The notes below the pieces were generated by a model. The model worked only from the letters and a program-made list of their open reading frames with translations, was not told where the DNA came from and did no database searches. This document shows positions 3,440 to 17,142 of a stretch of 64,000 nucleotides of DNA, one piece after another. Made by a program: the position numbers and the translations under genes. Source of the DNA: Clostridiales bacterium (GTDB taxonomy: Bacteria; Bacillota; Clostridia; Saccharofermentanales; DTU023); NCBI GenBank assembly GCA_004556455.1, contig SFGY01000005.1, positions 72,712-136,711 on the forward strand, in the 5' to 3' direction. How positions within the stretch are numbered: position 1 is the stretch's first letter; each line of letters starts with the position of its first letter.

Positions 3440-4828
3440 ATGAATCCTGCTGATTTCACAATGGATACGCTGGTGGCTCTGGCGACAAATCGCGGCTTTG
3501 TCTACCCTGGTTCCGAAATCTATGGGGGCCTGGCCAATTCCTGGGACTACGGTCCTTATGGAGCTGAGCTTAAGCGCCGTATTAAGGATGCCTGGTGGCG
3601 TTTCTTTGTCACGGAAAACGAACACACGGTGGGACTGGACAGCGGGATTCTTATGAATCCTGAAGTCTGGCGAGCCTCTGGCCATGTGGGCGGCTTTTCC
3701 GACCCCCTGATTGACTGCCGTGATTGCCACAGCCGTTTTCGTGCCGACAATCTTATTGAAAATTTTTACCGTGCTAAGGAAGAGACGATTCAGGTAGAGG
3801 GTCTTTCTAACGATGAACTCCTGACCATCATACGTCGGGACGGCATTCCCTGCCCGAACTGCGGATCTCATGATTTTACGGACATCCGGCAGTTCAATCT
3901 GATGTTTAAAACCTTCCAGGGCGTGACCGAAGGTTCGCAGGCGGAAATCTATCTGCGGCCTGAGACGGCACAGGGCATTTTCGTCAACTTCCGCAATGTG
4001 CAGCGGACATCCCGCCGCAAACTGCCTTTCGGTATTTGTCAGATTGGCAAATCTTTCCGTAATGAAATCACCCCGGGGAATTTTATTTTCCGTACCAGAG
4101 AATTTGAGCAGATGGAACTGGAATTTTTCTGCAAACCAGGGACGGATCTCGAGTGGTTCCAATACTGGCGCAGCTTTATCCATGACTTTCTCCTGCGCCT
4201 GGGCCTTCCGGAAGAAAAGCTGCGTCTGAGAGACCATGATAAAAAGGAGCTCTCCTTTTATTCGAAAGCCACGACCGACTTTGAGTTCGCCTTCCCCTTT
4301 GGCTGGGGCGAGCTCTGGGGCCTGGCCGATCGTACAGATTATGATCTGCACCAGCACATGGACATCAGCAAACAGGATCTGCGCTACTTTGATCCGGAAA
4401 GCAATGAAAAGTATCTGCCCTACGTGGTGGAGCCTTCTGTCGGGGTCGAACGCCTCTTCCTTGCACTGCTCTGTGCGGCATACGATGAACAGCAGCTGGA
4501 AAAAGAAACCCGCACGGTTCTGCATTTTCATCCTGCTATGGCTCCGGTGCAAATCGCTCTCCTGCCTCTCTCTGCTAAACTGAGTGAAAAGGCTCTCGAG
4601 CTCATGCCCCGCCTGCGCAAGTCAGGCACGGTTGAGTTTGATGACCGTCAGTCCATCGGCAAGCGCTATCGCCGCCAGGACGAGATCGGTACGCCTTACT
4701 GCGTCACTTACGATTTTGACAGCGTTGAAGATCAGCAGGTGACCATTCGCGAACGTGACAGTATGGAACAAATCCGCCTTCCCATCAGTGAGCTTGAGGC
4801 TTACTTTGACGGGAAATTTGAGCTTTGA
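3440..4828 (+). CDS. glyQS: glycine--tRNA ligase (class II, alpha2 type)
   Basis: [24 protein letters not shown] start region and class II motifs. The ATG at 3440 lies 1 nt after the rpoZ stop, so the track ORF start at 3314 is taken as upstream read-through. Confidence 0.9.
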
Positions 4829-5038
4829 TGCGTGGGGTTCTCAACGCGACCTCTTTGAGCAGACAAAGCAAGTGACTTCCGTCCGGTTGCTGCAAAGGCA
4901 ACGCGACAGGCAGGCAGGGGTCTTCGGCTGACACGGATATGAGCCGAAACAAGGGTTTCCCGAAGGCTGCAACAGGTCAACACTGTGATGCTTCTGGAAT
5001 ATAAGCAGAAATAGGATAAATTGAAATGGAGGAATTTT

Positions 5039-7702
5039 ATGACGAAGTTTGTATACATGTTTAAGGAAGGCAATGCTACGATGCGCAACCTCCTTGGAGG
5101 TAAAGGCGCCAATCTCTGTGAGATGATGAATATCGGCCTGCCGGTGCCGCATGGCTTTACCATTTCCACGGAAGCCTGCACGGCGTACTACAAGGATGGC
5201 CGCGAGATCAGCCCGGAGATCAATGAGCAGATCTTTGCAGCCCTGAAAAAAATGGAACAGGAGACGGGCAAGGTCTTCGGTGACAAGCACAATCCGCTGC
5301 TGGTCTCCGTACGTTCCGGAGCACGTGCTTCCATGCCGGGTATGATGGACACGATTCTCAACCTCGGTCTGAATGACGAAGTGGTCGAAGGTCTTATCGA
5401 GCTTTCCGGCAACCCGCGTTTTGCGTATGACAGTTATCGCCGCTTTATCACGATGTTCGCTGACGTCGTCATGGGCATCGACAAGAATAATTTTGAGACC
5501 ATTCTCGACGATCTGAAAAAGCAGAAGGGTGTTGAACTGGACACCGATCTCGATGCCGATGACATGAAGGAAATGGCCAAACGCAGCCTGGCCCGCTACG
5601 CTGAACTGAAAGGCGAAGCTTTCCCGCAGGAGCCTAAAGAACAGCTGATTGAAGCGGTTAAAGCCGTTTTCCGCAGCTGGATGAATGACCGTGCCATTTA
5701 CTATCGCCATATGAACAACATTCCCTCAGATTGGGGCACGGCCGTCAACGTTCAGGAAATGGTTTACGGCAACATGGGCGAAGATTCCGGCACCGGCGTG
5801 GCGTTCTCCCGTAACCCGGCCACCGGCGAACCCGGCATTTACGGTGAGTATCTCATGAATGCTCAGGGCGAAGACGTCGTTGCAGGTATCCGTACTCCCT
5901 TCCACATCGATCATATGAAAGAGCAGATGCCCGAGGTCTACAAGCAGTTTGTGGATGTCATCAACACGCTTGAAAAACACTATGGCGATATGCAGGACAT
6001 TGAGTTCACCATCGAAAAAGGCAAACTCTTCATGCTGCAGTGCCGCAATGGTAAGCGCACGGCTCAGGCTGCGCTGCGCGTTGCCGTGGATATGGTCAAT
6101 GAAGGTCTGGTTGACAAGAAAAAGGCCCTTCTGCAGATTGATCCCAACAGCCTGGATGCCTTGCTCCATCCGATGTTTGACCAAAAGGCTCTGAAAGCCG
6201 CGAAGAAGATTGCCAAAGGCCTGCCGGCTTCTCCGGGTGCTGCAGCCGGCCAGATCGTCTTCACCGCAGAGGACGCCAAAGCGGCCAAAGAGGCTGGTAA
6301 GAAGGTCATTCTGGTCCGCCTCGAAACCTCTCCCGAAGATATTGTGGGCATGAACGTTTCCGAGGGTATCCTCACCGTACGCGGCGGTATGACTTCACAT
6401 GCGGCCGTGGTCGCCCGCGGTATGGGCAAATGCTGTGTCTCCGGCTGTGCTGAAGCTTCTGTCAACGAGAAAGCCAAGACCTGCACCATTGGCGGCAAGG
6501 TCTACCATGAATTTGACGAAATGTCTCTCGACGGGTCTACCGGCCAGGTTTATGAAGGTCTGGTCCCGACCGTCCCCGCAGAGATTTCCGGCAATTTCGA
6601 AACGATCATGAACTGGTCTGATGAGATTCGCCAGATGAGCGTCCGCACCAACGCCGACACCCCCAAGGATGCCAAAAAGGCCCGTGAACTCGGCGCCGGC
6701 GGTATTGGTCTTACCCGTACCGAACACATGTTCTTTGAAGCGGACCGCATCTTCCAATTCCGCCGCATGATCCTGGCGAAGACAGAAGAAGAACGCCGCG
6801 ATGCGCTGGCTAAGATCGAACCGATCCAGCAGGGCGACTTCGAAGGAATTTTCCAGGCCATGGACGGCTTCCCGGTGACCATTCGTCTCCTGGATCCGCC
6901 TCTCCATGAATTCCTGCCTCATACCGAGCCTGAAATGAAAGAACTTGCGGATTCCATGGGCATTAAACTTGCGGATGTACAGCAGGTGGTTAAGGATCTG
7001 CACGAGCTCAACCCGATGCTCGGCCTGCGTGGCTGCCGTCTTTCCATCGTCTATCCGGAAATCGCCGAAATGCAGACTGCGGCCATCATCAAAGCCGCCC
7101 TTAAGGTCCAGAAAGATGGCGTCAAGGTCTTCCCTGAGATTATGGTACCGCTGATCAGCTGCGCCAAAGAGCTGGCTTTTGTTCGCAATGTCATCTGTAA
7201 GGTGGCGGACGAGCTTATCGCCAAATCGGGTCAGAGCCTGAAATACCATGTTGGTACGATGATCGAAATCCCGCGTGCAGCTCTGACCGCCAAAGAGGTG
7301 GTTCAGCAGGCTGACTTCTTCAGCTTCGGCACCAATGACCTCACCCAGATGGGTTACGGCCTCTCCCGTGACGACGCCGGTAAGATTCTTGAGACCTACT
7401 ACGAAAAGGGCATCTTCGAAAATGACCCGACCGCTATCCTCGACCAGGTGGGTGTTGGCCGCCTCATGGAAATCTGTGCCAAAGAATCCCGTGAAGTGAA
7501 ACCCGAAGTCCATCTCGGCATCTGCGGTGAGCATGGTGGTCAGCCCGATTCCATCGCATTCTGCCACAGCCTCAACTTCGACTATGTCTCCTGCTCGCCT
7601 TTCCGTGTGCCGATCGCCAGACTGGCAGCGGCTCAGTCCGAGATCCGGAATCCCCGCGAATATCGCAGCACCGATCTGAAGCAGTATTTCGACAAGAAAT
7701 AA
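5039..7702 (+). CDS. ppdK: pyruvate, phosphate dikinase
   Basis: MTKFVYMFKEG...LLGGKGANLCEM start, catalytic GGMTSHAAVVARG motif and PEP-utilising C-terminal domain; GGAGG lies 6 nt before the ATG at 5039. Confidence 0.92.
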   Translation: MTKFVYMFKEGNATMRNLLGGKGANLCEMMNIGLPVPHGFTISTEACTAYYKDGREISPEINEQIFAALKKMEQETGKVFGDKHNPLLVSVRSGARASMPGMMDTILNLGLNDEVVEGLIELSGNPRFAYDSYRRFITMFADVVMGIDKNNFETILDDLKKQKGVELDTDLDADDMKEMAKRSLARYAELKGEAFPQEPKEQLIEAVKAVFRSWMNDRAIYYRHMNNIPSDWGTAVNVQEMVYGNMGEDSGTGVAFSRNPATGEPGIYGEYLMNAQGEDVVAGIRTPFHIDHMKEQMPEVYKQFVDVINTLEKHYGDMQDIEFTIEKGKLFMLQCRNGKRTAQAALRVAVDMVNEGLVDKKKALLQIDPNSLDALLHPMFDQKALKAAKKIAKGLPASPGAAAGQIVFTAEDAKAAKEAGKKVILVRLETSPEDIVGMNVSEGILTVRGGMTSHAAVVARGMGKCCVSGCAEASVNEKAKTCTIGGKVYHEFDEMSLDGSTGQVYEGLVPTVPAEISGNFETIMNWSDEIRQMSVRTNADTPKDAKKARELGAGGIGLTRTEHMFFEADRIFQFRRMILAKTEEERRDALAKIEPIQQGDFEGIFQAMDGFPVTIRLLDPPLHEFLPHTEPEMKELADSMGIKLADVQQVVKDLHELNPMLGLRGCRLSIVYPEIAEMQTAAIIKAALKVQKDGVKVFPEIMVPLISCAKELAFVRNVICKVADELIAKSGQSLKYHVGTMIEIPRAALTAKEVVQQADFFSFGTNDLTQMGYGLSRDDAGKILETYYEKGIFENDPTAILDQVGVGRLMEICAKESREVKPEVHLGICGEHGGQPDSIAFCHSLNFDYVSCSPFRVPIARLAAAQSEIRNPREYRSTDLKQYFDKK

Positions 7703-9173: not shown

Positions 9174-9211
9174 TTATCGGCGCTGGAATGCTATGAATGG
9201 TTTAGCCAGAA
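9174..9211 (-). other. displaced original 3' end of the VanZ-like gene (attL side)
   Basis: The minus strand reads ...LAKPFI-AFQRR-TAA. The first 6 codons are identical in DNA to the current 3' end of the VanZ-like ORF at 16652-16670. Confidence 0.7.
9193..9211. repeat. attL core (19-bp direct repeat ATGAATGGTTTAGCCAGAA)
   Basis: Exact 19/19 copy of 16652-16670. Confidence 0.8.
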
Positions 9212-9310: not shown

Positions 9311-9330
9311 TTTGTTACCTTTTTGTTACC
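9311..9330. repeat. tandem arm-type repeat TTTGTTACC x2 (11-bp spacing), left end of island
   Basis: tttgttacctttttgttac, with 19/19 identity to 16589-16607; overlaps the integrase stop codon. Confidence 0.7.
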
Positions 9331-10378
9331 CCAGCCCGTTCAATTTGTTCATGACCTCTTGCTCTTCAGTTGGGTAAAAATGTGAGTATGTATCAAGCGT
9401 CATTGACACCTTCGCGTGACCTAACCGCTTGCTAATCAATACAATGTTAACGCCCTCTTGAATCAACAGGGAAGCATGCGAATGTCTGAGGCCGTGAACA
9501 TGAATGCGCTTTACCCCGGAGGCCCGACAGCCTTCAGCTATTCCCTTTTCAATGAAGCGTTTTTCCCATAAGAACACGGGCGCTTGCGGGGAGGTGTCGA
9601 AACAGTGGGCTTTATATTCCTGTAGAAGCTCGATCATGTGCCGGGGAAGCATAATGCGGCGCCTTTCGCCTGTTTTGGTAGGTGTGACAACGGCCCGACC
9701 CTTTAGGCGCTGGTATGACCGGTCAATCGTCACAGTGCCTTCTTTGAAGTCGAGCTTTTCCCACGTGAGCGCCAATAGCTCGCCTTTGCGCATACCTGAC
9801 CAGTACAGCAGCGCTATAGCCGTTTTTGCCTTGATGTCTGAAACCTCAGCAATAACCTTTGTGTACTCTTTCAGCGTCCAAAAACGCATATGTTTTTTCT
9901 CTTCATTTGCTGAGCGTGGAGGCCCGGCGAGTGAGCACGGATTGGCTTTCAGACCGTAGAGTTTAACCGCGTGATTGAAAATAGATGATAGCGTTTCCTG
10001 GAGCGCTTTCATGTATGTATTGCTGAGCCCTTGCTGAATTAAACCATTCTGCCAAGCTACAACCCTTTTAGCGTCGATATCTTTCAAGTTCATGTCGCCA
10101 AAGAAAGGGATTAAATGTTTTTTAATTCTGAAGTCTTTGGTCTGAATGGTATGTTACCGAAGTTGCGGGTCTACGTCTTTTTTGTAGAGCTTAACAAAAT
10201 CGCTAAATGTCATATCCGGCTGAAAAGCCGCGTTCGCTAGCTGGTCATGCTCGTAGGCCTCAGCCTCCCGCTTCAGGAGAAAGCCTGACTTCTTAATCTG
10301 CTTTGACTTTCCTGAAGCGTCCTTCATGCGGTAAATGCAGAACCATTTTCCCGTTTTTTCATTCTTGTAGACGGTCAT
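9326..10378 (-). pseudogene. int: tyrosine recombinase/integrase interrupted by a single in-frame TAA (10154-10156)
   Basis: Track ORFs 10154..10417 (arm-binding N-terminus MTVYKNEKTGKWFCIYR...) and 9326..10093 (catalytic domain with HGLRHSHASLL and LGHAKVSMTLDTYSH) are in the same frame. Reading through the stop gives ...DPQLR*HTIQTKDFRIKKHLIPFFGDMNLKDI..., a normal integrase core-binding region. Confidence 0.8.
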
Positions 10379-10940
10379 GGATGGTTTCATCCTCGGCTTG
10401 AGCCTTAGCCTTATCAATGTCTATTCCTTCTTTGAAACGGTGTGGGTTCGCCTGCACTAGCGCATATAGTTTAAATTTGAAATACTCTGCTATGAACTTT
10501 GATATTTCTTCCATTTCCTTAAAAGTAATGAGGTATGCTCCATTAACTGGAATATACCCATCTTCAAAATAGACAGCGCAATCTATATTTTTCTCTCCAG
10601 TGTCATTTAATGAATACATGGGGGCGTAGTGCAAACGTTCGTCCATATAGACTAAATTCTCAAAAAACTCATTGTTTATGTCGTATTTGTAAAATTCTTT
10701 AATATCGTCCCCTGTTTTTAAATCTTCTGTCAACGAATCAAGCGGGACATCCAAAGCCTGGGAAATTTTTGTCAATGTCTCAATACTCGGGGCACGATAT
10801 CCGCGCTCGTAGTTAGACAGAGCAGAAGGCTGAATTCCTATCTTCTCGGCCAAACATTTTTGGGATATGCCCTTTTTTTCTCTAGCATATACGATGCTAA
10901 AACCAAGACTGTCATAAAAGTTATTTATTTTATTGGCCAT
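10359..10940 (-). CDS. XRE-family HTH repressor with unknown C-terminal domain (cI/Stl-like position)
   Basis: MANKINN... start with GGAG RBS; HTH KKGISQKCLAEKIGIQPSALSNYERG; same strand as int and divergent from the cro-like gene. Confidence 0.7.
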   Translation of the reverse strand: MANKINNFYDSLGFSIVYAREKKGISQKCLAEKIGIQPSALSNYERGYRAPSIETLTKISQALDVPLDSLTEDLKTGDDIKEFYKYDINNEFFENLVYMDERLHYAPMYSLNDTGEKNIDCAVYFEDGYIPVNGAYLITFKEMEEISKFIAEYFKFKLYALVQANPHRFKEGIDIDKAKAQAEDETIHDRLQE

Positions 10941-10962
10941 GTCGTCATCTCCTTCTACAAAC

Positions 10963-11052
10963 AAAATACACAATGCGTGATGTATTTTCAAGTAAAAGCT
11001 TGACACATCACGAATCATGAATTACTATCAGAGAAAATACACGAAACGTGAT
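10963..11052. promoter_or_regulatory. divergent promoter/operator switch region
   Basis: Plus strand: TTGACA (11000-11005), 17-nt spacer, TACTAT (11023-11028). Minus strand: TTGAAA (10986-10991), 17-nt spacer, TATTTT (10963-10968). The 8-bp inverted repeat CGTGATGT (10976-10983) / ACATCACG (11005-11012) places one copy in each spacer. A third half-site CGTGAT lies at 11047-11052. Confidence 0.6.
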
Positions 11053-11076
11053 CGAGAAGGAGGCGAAAATCACAGA

Positions 11077-11274
11077 ATGAAACTTAACACTCTTGAAATT
11101 GACTTAGCTAGAGCCAAATTAGGCGTAAGTCAGACCGAACTAGCCGAAGCTGCAGGAATTAGCAGGGTATGGTTGGGAATTTTGTTAAAGCGTGGCGAGG
11201 CTTCCGCTGACATAGTAGTTAAATTGGCCGCTGCACTAGGTGTTTCTCCTGGAGAAATAATTAACGAAGGCTAA
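11077..11274 (+). CDS. XRE-family HTH protein (Cro-like position)
   Basis: 65-aa product MKLNTLEIDLARAKLGVSQTELAEAAGIS... The start is uncertain; the track ORF starts at 11017 without an RBS. Confidence 0.6.
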   Translation: MKLNTLEIDLARAKLGVSQTELAEAAGISRVWLGILLKRGEASADIVVKLAAALGVSPGEIINEG

Positions 11275-11314
11275 CCATGGCCGAATTACTAGGTATGAAG
11301 GAGGAACCCTAACC

Positions 11315-11530
11315 ATGAAGCAATACCCTGCAACCGTTGACGAACTGAAGCGAATGAAAGAGCTTGAACGCGCCTATCACGTTCAAATTACTAAAGACGA
11401 ACATTTCAACTATTACGCAGTCATTAGCAAGCTATCCAGCGGAGACGCTTCAGTCACCTTGTTGGACGACTTAGACCAGGTTGAAGACTGGCTATATAAC
11501 GACTGGGTATTAAATGACGAGGATTTTTAA
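11315..11530 (+). CDS. hypothetical protein (71 aa)
   Basis: GGAGG RBS about 9 nt upstream; no recognisable motif. Confidence 0.5.
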   Translation: MKQYPATVDELKRMKELERAYHVQITKDEHFNYYAVISKLSSGDASVTLLDDLDQVEDWLYNDWVLNDEDF

Positions 11531-11532
11531 CC

Positions 11533-11730
11533 ATGGCTGAATTACTAGGTGTGAATGAAGTTGTAAATATCGTAGGAACCGGCCCTGATGCAGCCTATAA
11601 GATCATACGCGAGTTAAACTCAGAACTCAAAGAACGGGGCTTTCTCGTTGTTCGCGGGCGTATTGCTGAAAACTACCTTCGGGAGCGGCTGAACCTTGAA
11701 AGGGGCAAAGAATGCCTGACCGACAAATAA
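11533..11730 (+). CDS. small HTH DNA-binding protein, excisionase-like
   Basis: 65 aa, MAELLGVNEVVNIVGTGPDAAYKIIRELN...; size and position (between switch and replication gene) fit Xis/HTH_17-type proteins. Confidence 0.5.
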   Translation: MAELLGVNEVVNIVGTGPDAAYKIIRELNSELKERGFLVVRGRIAENYLRERLNLERGKECLTDK

Positions 11731-13832
11731 CAATCAGCACAGCTAAAAGCGTTGAGACTAAGAAATGGAATGTCTCGACTATTACGGCTTCGCAATTTAT
11801 TAAAGAGCTTAACTGGTTTCGGGAAATTCACTACACCCCGGAAGACTTCGCGAAGCTAACAGCCGAACAGCGCAGGGATTTAAAGAACGGCTCTTGCTAC
11901 GTTTTCGGAGCCCTGGATGATACAGGAAAGCGGCAGAAAGGCCATATTCTAACCCGCGAGGGGCTGACCTATGACTTAGACAATATTAACCGCGAAACGC
12001 TTAATGAGGTGCTTTTCTGTCTCAGTGAGAGCGGTTATAACTACGCTGTTCATAGCACCGCAAGCTATGACGGAAAGAACGCAAAAGTTCGCGTGATTAT
12101 TCCTTTCTCACGAGCGATCAGCCCGGAGGAATACAAGGCGAAAGCGAAAGCAGCAGCGCCCTTGTTTGCTATTCCTGTTGATGATGATGTGAGTTCTTTT
12201 GAGGATACGCGCGCTCTATATCGCCCAACTAACCTGAAAGGCGTAGAACCTCTGTATTACGCCCGGACAGATGGCGAGTTCTTAGACCCTGACACGCTGG
12301 AAGCGCCGGAAATGCCCCTAGAACGCGTCACACCTGCTGAGCCTCAAGTTATGCCAAAGAACGAGGAGCGGGCGCAGATTGACGACCTGACGGCCATGGA
12401 GGCGGTACGCAAACAGGTTCACTATGACTGGAAGAACTTGCAGGACAGAGAAAACTATTTAGCGGCGCTTATGGTGATAGTCTCTGCCGTTCAGCACGGA
12501 GAGATCACGAGAGAAGCGGGCGAGGCTTGCGCGGTGCTACTGGCGGGAGATCGTAAGGACTGGAAAGAACCGAATCGTAAACAATTCTTTAAAGAACTTG
12601 AGAACACAACGACAAGAACACAATACACGTTTTGGCAGAAGTTCGGAGGGGGAAGGCAAAGCCCGGATGGGGATTCATCAGAGGCTAACAAAACCGACTT
12701 GGTCTGCCTGGCCGATATAGAGCCGAAAGACGTTTTTTGGCTATGGAAAGGATACATTCCCCGCGGCATGCTATTCGGAATCCAGGGCGACCCTGGCAGT
12801 GGCAAAACATACAGCACACTTTCGATATGCGCAGGAATAACCCGCGGGGAGCTGCCTCCTGACTTGTTTGGCCCTGTAAAGATACCCCCTGAAAACATTC
12901 TCTACGTAAACGGCGAAGATTCACTAGAACATACCATAGTGCCCCGACTTATCAAATTGAGGGCAGATATGACCCGCTGCTTTACCTTAGACGAAAGAGA
13001 AAAGGCGCTAGACTTTTCACAGTTAGATCGAATAAAACGAGCTGTAGAAAAAGCGCGCCCCGCCCTTGTCATTTTTGACCCCATTCAAGCGTTTCTTGGC
13101 GCGTCTGTTGATATGCACAAGGCAAACGAGGTCAGACCGGTTATGGCTGCCCTCTCTCGCCTTGCTGATGAATTCAGCTTCGCTTGCGGGCTTGTTGGTC
13201 ATATGAATAAATACGGGGGCGGTAAGGCCATTTATAGAGGGCTTGGCTCGATTGATCAGCTGGCAAATTATCGTACTGCCTTTTTAATCGGTAATGACCG
13301 CAGAGCTTCAGATCAGAAACTTATGATTCAGATTAAAAACAATCTCGATCGTCCAGCGCCCCCTCAGATATTCCGCATTGAAAACGACAAAACTATTTCA
13401 TGGCTTGGCCCCGACCCTGAAGCCAAAGAGGCCGACATATTGCAAGAAGCAGCCGAAAAAGAAGGCACGGCACTTAATAAGGCAATTACCTGGCTAAGAG
13501 GCTTATTAGAAGAAAAACCCGTTTGGTCTAACGAACTTGACGAGGAGGCCGGAAAAAACGAGATCAGCAGAAAAACATATGAAAGAGCGCGTGCTACCTT
13601 GCGCGGAAGTTGGGAAATTGACACATACAGAGCGCCAGTGATTAATCGCTGGTACTGGGCTAAAAGAGGGAAAAAAGTCCATTTCGGAACTGAAGATGAA
13701 GGAAAATGCTCAATCGAATATGAAGATGATGAAGCCGTCAAAGTTGGCGAACTTGGCGAACATTGGCGAACTTGGCGAACTTTGGCGAACTTTGGCGAAG
13801 TTGGCGAAGTTGGCGAACTTGGCGAACATTGA
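11712..13832 (+). CDS. fused AEP-type primase-polymerase / AAA_25 (RepA/DnaB-like) helicase replication protein
   Basis: N-terminal LTYDLD (DxD) and AVHST motifs typical of archaeo-eukaryotic primases. Central Walker A GDPGSGKT, Walker B LVIFDP and GHMNK. The last ~30 aa are encoded by the iteron array. Confidence 0.75.
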   Translation: MPDRQITISTAKSVETKKWNVSTITASQFIKELNWFREIHYTPEDFAKLTAEQRRDLKNGSCYVFGALDDTGKRQKGHILTREGLTYDLDNINRETLNEVLFCLSESGYNYAVHSTASYDGKNAKVRVIIPFSRAISPEEYKAKAKAAAPLFAIPVDDDVSSFEDTRALYRPTNLKGVEPLYYARTDGEFLDPDTLEAPEMPLERVTPAEPQVMPKNEERAQIDDLTAMEAVRKQVHYDWKNLQDRENYLAALMVIVSAVQHGEITREAGEACAVLLAGDRKDWKEPNRKQFFKELENTTTRTQYTFWQKFGGGRQSPDGDSSEANKTDLVCLADIEPKDVFWLWKGYIPRGMLFGIQGDPGSGKTYSTLSICAGITRGELPPDLFGPVKIPPENILYVNGEDSLEHTIVPRLIKLRADMTRCFTLDEREKALDFSQLDRIKRAVEKARPALVIFDPIQAFLGASVDMHKANEVRPVMAALSRLADEFSFACGLVGHMNKYGGGKAIYRGLGSIDQLANYRTAFLIGNDRRASDQKLMIQIKNNLDRPAPPQIFRIENDKTISWLGPDPEAKEADILQEAAEKEGTALNKAITWLRGLLEEKPVWSNELDEEAGKNEISRKTYERARATLRGSWEIDTYRAPVINRWYWAKRGKKVHFGTEDEGKCSIEYEDDEAVKVGELGEHWRTWRTLANFGEVGEVGELGEH

Positions 13833-13891
13833 CGAACTTGGCGAACTTTGGCGAACTTTGGCGAAGTTGGCGAAGTTGGCGAACTTGACGA
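13744..13891 (+). repeat. iteron array (putative island replication origin)
   Basis: 16 direct copies of TTGGCGAA (14 exact, 2 TTGACGA) spaced 9-10 bp apart, with a 66-bp higher-order period. Confidence 0.8.
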
Positions 13892-14035
13892 GCCCTAGCA
13901 CACATGGCGGGGTAGGTAGTAGTAGGCAAGACAGTTTACCCGGCACACCCTAAAAAAAGCGCAAAAGGTGAAATGTAGTTCACATAATAATAAAAAATGT
14001 GCAATTAGCTTCAGGGTACTACTACCCCGTCAATG

Positions 14036-14052
14036 TTCGCCAAGCTGGCGAA
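14036..14052. repeat. inverted iteron pair TTCGCCAA-g-CTGGCGAA
   Basis: Imperfect palindrome built from the iteron word, located beyond an A+T-rich stretch (about 13955-14010). Confidence 0.6.
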
Positions 14053-14277
14053 GTTCCCCTGAACTGGTCACGCAATAAACCGGAAGTAGATAATAGTTGC
14101 TCAAGCGCGCCCGGTGCTGATTGCAAAGGAGGTTTCACGAAAGCATTTAAGAGTATCAAAACCAAAAACGCGAAGCAGAAATAACCGTCCCTACCCTGAG
14201 AAAGCACACAGGACAAACAAGAAACACAAAACACAAAGGCACACAACATCAAAGAACATGAAGGAGGATTGAAAAAC

Positions 14278-14583: not shown

Positions 14584-14659
14584 ACACTTGACCGCCCTGA
14601 AAGCTATTGCCAGGGCCCGCCAGGTGTAAAGAGGTACAACAGAACAAAAGCCGGAGCAA

Positions 14660-14687
14660 GGGGTCTGCATATCGCAGCCCCCTTTTT
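14660..14687 (+). terminator. Rho-independent terminator
   Basis: Stem ggggtctgc/gcagcccc (one bulge), 5-nt loop, then cTTTTT. Confidence 0.7.
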
Positions 14688-15318
14688 AATGGCAGAAGGC
14701 TATCACAAGAAACCCCGCAAAAATTTCCTCACGCGCGCGCGAGATATTGCCGCTGTCGCTAACCCCTATCCGACAGCCACCCCCTAAAGATTTTTGCATT
14801 TTTTTACCCCCCTGCCCTTAGCCGTATCACTTAAAGCCAGGTTAAAGCCGTGTATTCTGTGTGTTTCTCTTTCCTCACGAAAACCCCGCGCTCCTCACGG
14901 CCAACGGGAAAACATGAACCACGTTTCCCGCATGATTGTTTCATCGCTCAGATGATTAGCAAGAGGGCAAAACTAGAGAATGGCAACGGCTAATAGCCAG
15001 TAAACAAGGAGCTAGTAATCACACTCAAGGCCGCTTGAAGCTAGCGATTTCTACCCCCTCTTACCCTCAGAAAGAAAAGATTTTCGCATAAGAAACCGCT
15101 AATAATAGTTGGAAATATTTCACTTTTAGCAGCTTTTTGCTGAGAGAAGAACACGATTAAAGCACGATCAGGAACAACAAACAAGAGCGGGCACCCTTTC
15201 ATGTGTTTTTATGTGCAGTGACGGCGAAAGGCGCGCCCATGCTGGTAGGGAGGAGGTAGCCCACGCCTTTAGTAAAGGCAAAGCAAGGGCTGAAGCTGTC
15301 AAAATTTCTTTGACAAGT

Positions 15319-15345
15319 GCCGGTTACTGAAAACGGCTTTTTTTA
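15319..15345 (+). terminator. terminator-like hairpin inside the ORF-free tract
   Basis: Stem gccggtt/aacggc (one bulge), 6-nt loop, T8 run. Confidence 0.6.
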
Positions 15346-15538
15346 TGGCGAAGGTCGACCGCGGCCAGTCCCGACAAAATATATAATTTCCTCTCGCTCC
15401 TATAGAAACCCTCAGCACGCAAGCGATGAAAAGCTAAGCGCCCCGCTTTATATTGCTATTAGCCGCTTGTGGTGTTAGAATCTTTTTAAGAACATAAGAT
15501 ATCTTGAAGTATATGTATAATATTCAAATAAATATCTA

Positions 15539-15575
15539 ACTTCGACAAACTGGTATTTTGCGAAGTTCGTTTTTT
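15539..15575 (+). terminator. terminator-like hairpin inside the ORF-free tract
   Basis: 7-bp stem aacttcg/cgaagtt, 15-nt loop, followed by cgTTTTTT. Confidence 0.4.
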
Positions 15576-15759
15576 GCATAATATACAGGGCTTGAAATGC
15601 CCTATTATCAGGGCTTACAAAACTGCAAAAACTAAGACAAACTACAAACAAAAAACACGAAGTCTATAAAAAGCGTTAGAACGCATTTGAGAATGAATAA
15701 TATACATCGGGATATTTTATCAATCGTTAAAAGTGTTTCTATTGTGGAGGTACGGTGCT

Positions 15760-16588: not shown

Positions 16589-16607
16589 TTTGTTACCTTT
16601 TTGTTAC
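16589..16607. repeat. tandem arm-type repeat, right end of island
   Basis: tttgttacctttttgttac, identical to 9311-9329. Confidence 0.7.
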
Positions 16608-16641
16608 TCCAAAAATCAAAAATCCATGAAAATACGGCATT

Positions 16642-17142
16642 TCAAAGTCTAATGAATGGTTTAGCCAGAATCAGACCCAGGATGAGCCCCAGGGTGTTGA
16701 GCAGAATATCGTCGATATCCCAGACGCCGATGCCCGTCAGTAATTGTAAAAATTCGATCAGGAGGATACAAAAAAGACCGGAAAAGAAGAGCCTGAAATG
16801 ACCTTTATTTCTCAGGAGCAGACGACCCAGAAAACCATAGGGAAGAAAAATAAGGAGATTGCCGAGGAGATTCAAAAGCGCCAGGTGGAAATGTGGGCCA
16901 CCCGGTTCCAAGAGCTGCGAGAAGAGACGAATGCTGTGTAAAGGTTTCAGGTTAAAGGCTTCGCCCACCTGAGGGTCCAGAAGGGTCAGATAAGGTGACA
17001 GTTGCTGAGGCTGCATAAAGGGGAGCGTTTTAAAAAGTAAAAGTGAGAAAACGCAGCAAAGGTAGAGCAAAAAGCACAGCCAACCCACGATGCTCAGCCA
17101 GGTCAAAGAAGAATGTAAACGTTTATGGCTCATAAGCTGCAT
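16642..17142 (-). CDS. VanZ-like family membrane protein (3' end supplied by the island)
   Basis: Multi-TM 166-aa ORF with LGNLLIFLPYGFLG and WDIDDILLNTLG motifs typical of VanZ-like proteins. Confidence 0.8.
   Translation of the reverse strand: MQLMSHKRLHSSLTWLSIVGWLCFLLYLCCVFSLLLFKTLPFMQPQQLSPYLTLLDPQVGEAFNLKPLHSIRLFSQLLEPGGPHFHLALLNLLGNLLIFLPYGFLGRLLLRNKGHFRLFFSGLFCILLIEFLQLLTGIGVWDIDDILLNTLGLILGLILAKPFIRL
16652..16670. repeat. attR core (19-bp direct repeat)
   Basis: Exact copy of 9193-9211; encodes the LAKPFI codons of the VanZ-like ORF. Confidence 0.8.

Follow-up and report, generated by a model that had tools for sequence, protein, structure and literature searches.

The rep gene and the iterons at its 3' end

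We analyzed a stretch of 64,000 nucleotides from a Clostridiales bacterium (contig SFGY01000005.1, positions 72,712 to 136,711; hereafter the window), which carries an integrated element, or island, of roughly 7.5 kb. The region studied here is the replication module of this island: a gene, rep, whose last codons are read from an array of short direct repeats (iterons), followed by A+T-rich DNA and a few more iterons. The rep open reading frame (ORF) occupies positions 11712–13832 of the plus strand, stop codon included, and encodes a protein of 706 amino acids that was identified from its translation and from Pfam and PHROG matches as a fused primase-helicase-initiator. Homology searches yielded 78 relatives of Rep, and a blastn search of rep and the origin region against phage genomes gave no match.

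The N-terminus of Rep (aa 1–195; 11712–12296, plus strand) is predicted to fold into an archaeo-eukaryotic primase (AEP) domain. PHROG primase/helicase matches cover aa 1–196, the AlphaFold2 (AF2) model has a confidence score (pLDDT) of about 88, and Foldseek matched it to the AEP domain of the PrimPol of cyanophage S-2L (6zp9_A; E = 2.1e-4, prob 1.00) and to RepB' of RSF1010 (3h20; E = 1.3e-3); residues D88 and D90 are invariant. A RecA-like (AAA_25) helicase core follows at aa 337–501 (12720–13214, plus strand; Pfam PF13481, E = 6e-24), for which profile searches of the PDB returned, as the closest solved structures, RadA (5lkm; 7e-12) and the RepA helicase of RSF1010 (1g8y; 1.8e-4), the RSF1010 RepA structures matched by Rep being 1g8y and 1nlf. 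PDB sequence searches with Rep identified this ATPase core alone, and the flanking domains required structure prediction. At aa 583–651 (13458–13664, plus strand), AF2 places three helices and a beta-hairpin (H-H-H-beta-beta) with pLDDT values of 85–90, and the top Foldseek list consists almost entirely of winged-helix DNA-binding domains, none below E = 1e-3; we propose that this predicted winged helix is the iteron reader. As modeled, Rep is a single polypeptide that combines an AEP primase, a RecA-like helicase and a C-terminal winged helix. Residues 674–706 have a pLDDT of about 40, and the iteron-encoded tail of the protein is probably disordered.

The array consists of 16 direct copies of TTGGCGAA, two of them of the TTGACGA type, at positions 13744–13892 of the plus strand. 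Fourteen copies are exact (13744–13883), and the variants are TTGACGAA at 13829 and TTGACGAG at 13885. Successive copies are 9 or 10 bp apart, close to one turn of the helix, in the order 9, 10, 9, 10, 10, 9, 9, 9, 10, 9, 10, 10, 9, 9, 9. On both strands of the 64-kb window there are 16 exact matches to TTGGCGAA, versus 3.8 expected, a number that none of 100 shuffled sequences reached. Tandem Repeats Finder reported a period of 9 (15.8 copies) and a period of 66 (2.3 copies, 97% matches), the latter corresponding to two printed higher-order units, 13753–13818 and 13819–13884 (plus strand), which differ at the single base 13832.

The array begins 89 nt before the rep stop codon and extends 60 nt beyond it, so that nine iterons and the stop itself lie within the ORF. 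The last 29 codons (aa 678–706; 13743–13829, plus strand) are iteron-encoded, and the protein ends in ...VKVGELGEHWRTWRTLANFGEVGEVGELGEH. Its stop, TGA (T13830-G13831-A13832, plus strand), is located within the variant iteron TTGACGAA (13829–13836). With G instead of A at 13832, the ORF would continue as ...WRTWRTLANFGEVGEVGELDEP, by reading of the downstream frame, up to a TAG at 13896–13898 (plus strand), just past the array, which is also the stop used by one close allele, L122.

The way in which the ORF ends follows from the iteron sequence. Steps of 9 bp preserve the reading frame and each 10-bp step moves it by one, and a single 8-mer is consequently translated in three frames, as (V/L)GE, then WRT, then LAN. 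For TTGNNGAA read as xTT-GNN-GAA no stop is possible; read as TTG-NNG-AAx, a stop would require TA at NN, and none of the copies here has it; only in the frame xxT-TGN-NGA can TGA form, from copies that have A at position 4 or T at 5. The ORF and the array overlap because the iteron sequence allows a stop only where a TTGA-type copy is met in the third frame; rep therefore continues into the array until it reaches such a copy or, failing that, the TAG after the array. The repeat is conserved as DNA and not as protein, since it is read in three frames, goes on past the stop and recurs in inverted form some 200 nt downstream. These same three features rule out a protein-level (coding) repeat. 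We also considered whether a family-wide conserved acidic C-terminal tail could explain the (V/L)GE motif, and this was ruled out by a charge survey of homologue tails: in the helicase family the D/E fraction is 0.15 in the last 20 aa and likewise 0.15 in the preceding 240 aa, 71% of the tails are neutral or positive in net charge, and the majority of distant homologues stop right at the wing.

Beyond the array lie about 55 nt of ordinary composition, and then a stretch with 70% A+T over 64 nt (13949–14012), the proposed DNA unwinding element. Its enrichment is moderate, with a peak of 77.5% in the 40-mer at 13972 as compared to 54% for the island, and the stretch is conserved among alleles. 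It is bracketed by an inverted repeat with arms of 10 nt that are 100% complementary and 92 nt apart (GGTAGTAGTA at 13915–13924 and TACTACTACC at 14017–14026, plus strand). The right arm is a (TAC)n run that adjoins the distal iterons and varies from about 3 to 6 copies across alleles, as seen at the homologous positions of L124–L127. The distal iterons (14027–14052) include the inverted pair TTCGCCAAgcTGGCGAA at 14036–14052, made of an inverted TTCGCCAA (14036–14043) and a direct TGGCGAA (14046–14052), and CCGTCAA at 14027–14033, the reverse complement of TTGACGG, which may be a third, degenerate inverted iteron. Iterons are thus present on both sides of the A+T-rich DNA in opposite orientations, the right set being small, with one degenerate copy. 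No repeat cluster comparable to the array was found elsewhere in the island, nor was a terminator-like site found on the rep strand between rep and the next ORF.

These results bear out an earlier note on this DNA, which had described 16 copies at 9–10 bp spacing, two 66-bp higher-order units starting at 13753 and 13819, an A+T-rich stretch after the array and an inverted iteron pair at 14036–14052. It had also estimated that the ORF runs about 90 nt into the array, with some 30 iteron-encoded residues, which the count of 89 nt matches. Its claim that the TGA exists solely through a one-base iteron variant is upheld at 13832; indeed, L122, which has G there, reads through.

Variation of the array and covariation with the Rep C-terminus

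The cluster of at least 90% identity around the window Rep comprises 15 proteins, 13 of them full-length, and we compared the DNA of 8 distinct alleles. After the sequence ...DDEAVK, these 15 Reps display about 12 variants of the iteron-encoded tail, 7 to 29 aa in length. The tail is VGELGEH in P0082, P0085 and P0088, VDEVGEQ in P0087, VGEVGEVGEH in P0081, VEEVGEVGEH in P0092, VEEVGELDEH in P0083, VEEVCELDEH in P0091 and VEEVCELYEH in P0086; P0090 ends in VEEVGEVGEVGEH, P0080 in VEEVCEVGEVGELDEH, P0001 in VEEVEEVEEHCRT, P0084 in VGELGEHWRTWRTLANFGEVGEVGELDEP and the window Rep in VGELGEHWRTWRTLANFGEVGEVGELGEH. Most alleles terminate in E-H-stop, encoded by GAA CAT TGA, and in the sequences compared the clade as a rule stops within a TTGA-type iteron that follows the first 10-bp step. 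The window departs from this rule by having G in the first CAT-spaced iteron, and its stop is used one 66-bp unit later.

L122 shows no difference to the window in the 2031 nt of rep that precede the array or in the 200 nt that follow it, and the sole differences are a 66-bp indel and the G/A at 13832. It carries nine iterons, with one higher-order unit that has TGG at the homologous site and hence no TGA, and is read through to the TAG. The 90-nt array of L123 equals that of L122, except that its third copy is TTGACGAA and the stop lies there; with one unit fewer than the window, L123 differs from it at 3 positions in the 2031-nt rep body and at none in the 200 nt after the array. Placing an L122-type first unit in front of an L123-type array yields the window array, with 66 bp gained.

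Across the 8 alleles the arrays measure 89–156 nt, the window having the longest (156 nt), and they change by gain or loss of 9-, 19- and 66-bp units and by single-base substitutions. It is because of these changes that Rep tails differ among near-identical elements, and by sequence comparison the array is by far the fastest-changing part of the element. The earlier note had argued that expansion or contraction of the array would alter the Rep C-terminus, and had suggested comparing array length and stop position among homologues; this comparison, with a stop position that varies at identities of at least 90%, and the allele series, L122 included, agree with the argument. Six of the 8 alleles have the TAG beyond the array, in frame. 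We rejected its conservation as a sign of selection, in that 9-bp and 66-bp indels keep the frame automatically and the alleles are related. When the invariant 30-mer beside the distal pair was used as a probe of metagenome and viral collections, only an already-known contig was returned.

Seven of the 8 alleles share an unchanged distal pair, TTCGCCAAgcTGGCGAA, which is replaced by TTCGTCAAgcTGCCGAA only in L001/L002. This allele, which encodes P0001, is also the only one of the cluster without TTGGCGAA in its array, the iterons there being TTGAAGAA, TTGCCGAA, TTGACGAA and TTGAGGAA. Among the 13 full-length Reps of the cluster, P0001 has exactly four private substitutions in aa 1–677, and all four map within the 69-residue predicted winged helix, with a probability of about 1e-4 of doing so by chance: E611G in helix 2, K621A and G632E at the two ends of helix 3, and T638K in the wing. 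A second signal comes from L129, which has the island backbone and the primase domain in common with the window and carries a different helicase/C-terminal module. At the position of the putative window origin it has an entirely different one, in which direct copies of TTGTCAT start 12 nt after the stop and are followed by an A+T-rich spacer and inverted ATGACAA; to judge from the sequences, helicase, reader domain and origin are exchanged together as one cassette. These two independent covariation signals support the proposal that the C-terminal winged helix of Rep reads the array. In a comparison of L129 (1501–3700) with window positions 11712–14115, in which backbone and N-terminal primase domain are the same, the L129 protein P0004 displayed 86% identity and the right junction fell near gctgattgcaaaggagg (window about 14116).

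Three more lineages with full-length Reps, at 42–49% identity, likewise end rep within iterons of their own, which differ from those of the window. L003–L008 and L010 (49% identity) have TGGCGAA and then inverted CGCCAA, L009 (45%) has TTGGCCAA, and L011 (42%) has TGAGAAA, A+T-rich DNA and then inverted TTTCTCA. In a survey of about 110 loci with the helicase and C-terminal module, in which only exact 7-mers were detected, arrays starting 4–20 nt past the stop were also found in L091 (TTGGCGG), L108 (TTGGCAA), L112 (TTGGCCA), L114 (GATTCTAA) and L050 (TGCAAGA), each with inverted copies further downstream. About 95 loci, at 41% identity or less, gave no clear exact-7-mer array near the stop, which is a weak negative given that matching was exact only. 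The relatives are found mainly in metagenome-assembled genomes of Clostridia (Oscillospiraceae, Lachnospiraceae).

A putative origin and competing explanations

The origins of Staphylococcus aureus pathogenicity islands (SaPIs) contain 6–12 iterons directly downstream of rep around an A+T-rich centre, with at least 2 iterons on each side, in opposite directions, that are bound by the C-terminal winged helix of Rep, a helicase that loads itself (PMC9371898). More broadly, direct iterons, an A+T-rich stretch and inverted iterons beside an initiator gene make up a classical origin layout (PMC9371898; PMC7466680). The earlier note had seen in the window the layout of SaPIs and other phage-inducible chromosomal islands (PICIs) 3' of rep, and this likeness stands when set against published SaPI origins (PMC9371898), with the qualification that the Rep family differs. 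The putative origin lies at the 3' end of an initiator-helicase gene, its short iterons (5–8 bp) flank an A+T-rich region in opposing orientations, and a C-terminal winged helix, here a predicted one, would be the iteron reader. The fusion of primase to helicase recalls PriRep5 of SaPI5, the order of integrase, divergent repressor/cro and rep is that of PICIs, and a length of about 7.46 kb with candidate att repeats and a terminal integrase is within the PICI range of about 7–18 kb. In contrast to PICIs, genes for packaging or helper interference were not found in the window island by Pfam and PHROG scans. Moreover, SaPI Reps are AAA+ proteins of superfamily (SF) 3 or SF6, whereas the window Rep combines an AAA_25 core of the RecA type with an AEP primase; on sequence grounds it is not homologous to SaPI Reps, and the resemblance is one of layout, not of family. 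Published descriptions put SaPI iterons downstream of the ORF, whereas nine iterons and the stop codon are inside it here; in the literature that we searched, with the primary SaPI origin papers outside our reach, no statement of SaPI iterons overlapping rep was found.

We consider it likely that the gene for a fused AEP-primase/RecA-type-helicase/winged-helix initiator carries a SaPI-like iteron origin at its 3' end, and that the iteron-encoded tail is a tolerated by-product. The support for an origin is indirect and comes from the layout, the winged helix predicted beside the array and the two covariation signals. Such an origin would begin inside the last 89 nt of rep and would comprise the array, the spacer of about 55 nt, the 64-nt A+T-rich stretch and 2–3 distal iterons. 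By analogy with SaPI Rep, winged helices would bind iterons on both sides of the A+T-rich DNA, which would then melt; the helicase would load itself and the primase domain would prime. The tail probably results from slippage of the array and unequal recombination, and is probably no functional module, because it is predicted to be disordered, is hypervariable in near-identical Reps and measures only 7 aa in some. The coupling between the origin and the Rep C-terminus is real in sequence, and probably has little functional effect.

Several observations weigh against this reading. The iteron sets of the window are unequal (16 versus 2–3), whereas those of SaPIs are roughly balanced, and the array lies about 55 nt away from the A+T-rich DNA. 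The winged-helix call comes from an AF2 model with a mean pLDDT of 73, and every Foldseek match has an E-value above 1e-3. The exact-7-mer survey indicates that the array layout is not universal for the helicase family, and most array lengths were taken from short-read assemblies of metagenomes, in which tandem repeats can be miscounted. Lastly, the overlap is kept in all four lineages, which have diverged to 42–49% identity, and a purely neutral by-product might be expected to be lost more often.

This last point is also an argument for a functional overlap, in which translation ending in the origin would favor cis loading of Rep, or the variable tail would tune Rep activity; in the tuning form, array length would set both the number of binding sites and a property of the protein. 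Not only do all four full-length-Rep lineages end rep in iterons of their own, but 13 of the 13 full-length alleles of the 90% cluster retain at least two iterons in frame, and the approximately 55 residues that follow the winged helix (aa 652–706) would roughly span the ribosome exit tunnel. Cis-acting initiators with an origin just downstream of their gene, such as RepA of plasmid R1, have reportedly been described and count in its favor. We nevertheless regard a functional overlap as unlikely, considering that tails of 7 to 29 aa vary in sequence among near-identical Reps and are predicted to be disordered, that relatives with arrays 4–20 nt after the stop, as well as L129 at 12 nt, do without the overlap, and that no acidic tail is conserved in the family at large. 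We are similarly doubtful of a selected device in which, with translation ending inside the binding sites, the nascent winged helix loads on the DNA that encodes it via the transcript tethered by RNA polymerase. If it were true, cis loading would shield a small satellite from related elements that compete for its initiator, and array slippage would tune binding-site number and tail length together.

It could also be argued that Rep binds the array and that the array is not an origin, serving instead as an operator or roadblock, or as a copy-control (handcuffing), partition or packaging site, with replication starting elsewhere. The covariation shows a match between the Rep C-terminal domain and the repeat, and not the use that is made of it; Rep bound there could influence read-through, as no terminator-like site was found on the rep strand before the next ORF, and the distal set is far smaller than the array. 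We hold this to be improbable in view of the classical origin layout beside an initiator gene (PMC9371898; PMC7466680), which recurs with different iterons in many relatives, and of the lack of a comparable repeat cluster elsewhere in the island; regulatory and origin roles are, in addition, compatible. A more technical concern is that assembly may have created the 66-bp duplication, and with it the exact stop of the window, and that the true allele is of the 90-nt L122/L123 type. The near-identity of L122 and L123 to the window in the rep body (0 and 3 differences), with one unit fewer each, would be compatible with it, as would the composition of the window array, whose first unit is of the L122 type and whose remainder equals an L123-type array. 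Assemblers, however, usually collapse tandem repeats and rarely expand them, the two units differ at one base and so provide distinct k-mers, and unequal recombination between such alleles gives exactly this structure. An artefact thus appears very improbable to us, and rep ends inside the array in every allele either way.

Other replication systems provide partial parallels to the SaPI-like origin that we favor. Stx phages have 6 iterons, as compared to 4 in lambda, with O proteins that exceed that of lambda by 13 aa (PMC7466680). As in the window, iterons and an A+T-rich region lie inside the initiator's own coding sequence in lambdoid O genes, and iteron number alters the protein. However, the lambda origin is located in a mid-gene linker between domains, and its 19-bp iterons are in frame throughout and supply no stop codon, whereas rep of the window overlaps its iterons at the very 3' end, changes frame across them and takes its stop codon from one of them; lambda O is also neither a helicase nor a primase, unlike the window Rep. 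The alpha protein of phage P4 likewise unites a primase, a helicase and a C-terminal winged-helix origin-binding domain in one polypeptide of a satellite element, and differs in its primase type, in having an SF3 helicase and in that ori and crr are not at the 3' end of the gene. The structural matches of the primase and helicase domains of Rep include RepB' and RepA, respectively, of RSF1010 (IncQ), whose origin is iteron-based as well; there, RepA, RepB' and RepC are separate and RepC reads 20-bp iterons, whereas in the window the domains are fused and a predicted winged helix would be the reader.

With respect to known origins, what is new is the overlap at the extreme 3' end, the frame change within the array, the stop formed by an iteron variant and the existence of initiators with differing tails; the whole varies a theme familiar from phage and satellite origins and does not amount to a novel type of system. 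It provides a natural allele series of near-identical elements that differ in iteron number, iteron sequence and initiator tail, and thereby material on the evolution of iteron copy number and initiator specificity. E611G, K621A, G632E and T638K, which accompany the change from TTGGCGAA to TTG(AA/CC/AC)GAA, represent a candidate specificity code. The fused initiator with its putative 3' iteron origin would constitute an undescribed replication module in small integrated elements of gut and digester Clostridia, hosts for which few replicons are suited to genetic tools. For annotation purposes, the C-terminus of rep in this family should be taken as repeat-encoded and variable in length.

The surrounding island

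The island is delimited by two perfect 19-bp direct repeats, ATGAATGGTTTAGCCAGAA, at 9193–9211 (candidate attL) and 16652–16670 (candidate attR; both plus strand), about 7.46 kb apart. The right copy lies inside the 3' end of a vanZ-like gene (16642–17142, minus strand), which suggests integration into that gene end, and the genes that flank the island encode a LysR regulator and uppP. A second repeat, of 23 bp (TTTGTTACCTTTTTGTTAC[C/T]CCA), is present just inside each end (9311–9333 and 16589–16611).

A tyrosine integrase gene of 350 codons (9326–10378, minus strand; Pfam, tblastn) adjoins the left repeat. It is interrupted by an in-frame stop at codon 75 (10154–10156), where Glu is found in L001 (96.6% identical over 350 aa by tblastn); this island copy may no longer excise, unless the stop is a sequencing error. 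Next come an HTH_3 repressor-like gene (10359–11018, minus strand; Pfam), divergent from the cro-rep operon, and a Cro/CI-type HTH gene (11017–11274, plus strand; Pfam), the first of that operon. The order is then two small ORFs, rep, the array and a few small ORFs, and the gene order at the rep operon is the same in L001–L009 and L122–L129. The repressor/cro segment (window 10380–11296) could not be aligned with L001/L002, both flanks being 92–96% identical, which looks like exchange of an immunity module between otherwise similar islands. We also observed a 31-nt direct repeat (90% identical; 11272–11302 and 11528–11558), with one copy past the cro-like stop, upstream of the first small ORF, and the other at the start of the second small ORF before rep; it spans a TAAccATG stop-start junction and the codons for MAELLG.

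To the right, about 1.1 kb (14584–15732) contain no ORF over 58 aa and are 92% conserved in L001; no gene is called there in L001 or L002 and there is no Rfam match, the Rfam scan of the island having returned one sub-threshold chance match only. Pfam and PHROG scans of the island detected no terS or capsid-remodelling gene, and the remaining ORFs gave one HTH protein. Among the relatives, L009 carries a Terminase_4 gene at 9778–10095 (a weak match), and L008 carries, at 3700–5585, a DUF4355 gene (a faint match) beside a capsid-sized gene of 400 aa, a putative capsid. Going by these matches, parts of the island family may be phage satellites with packaging functions.

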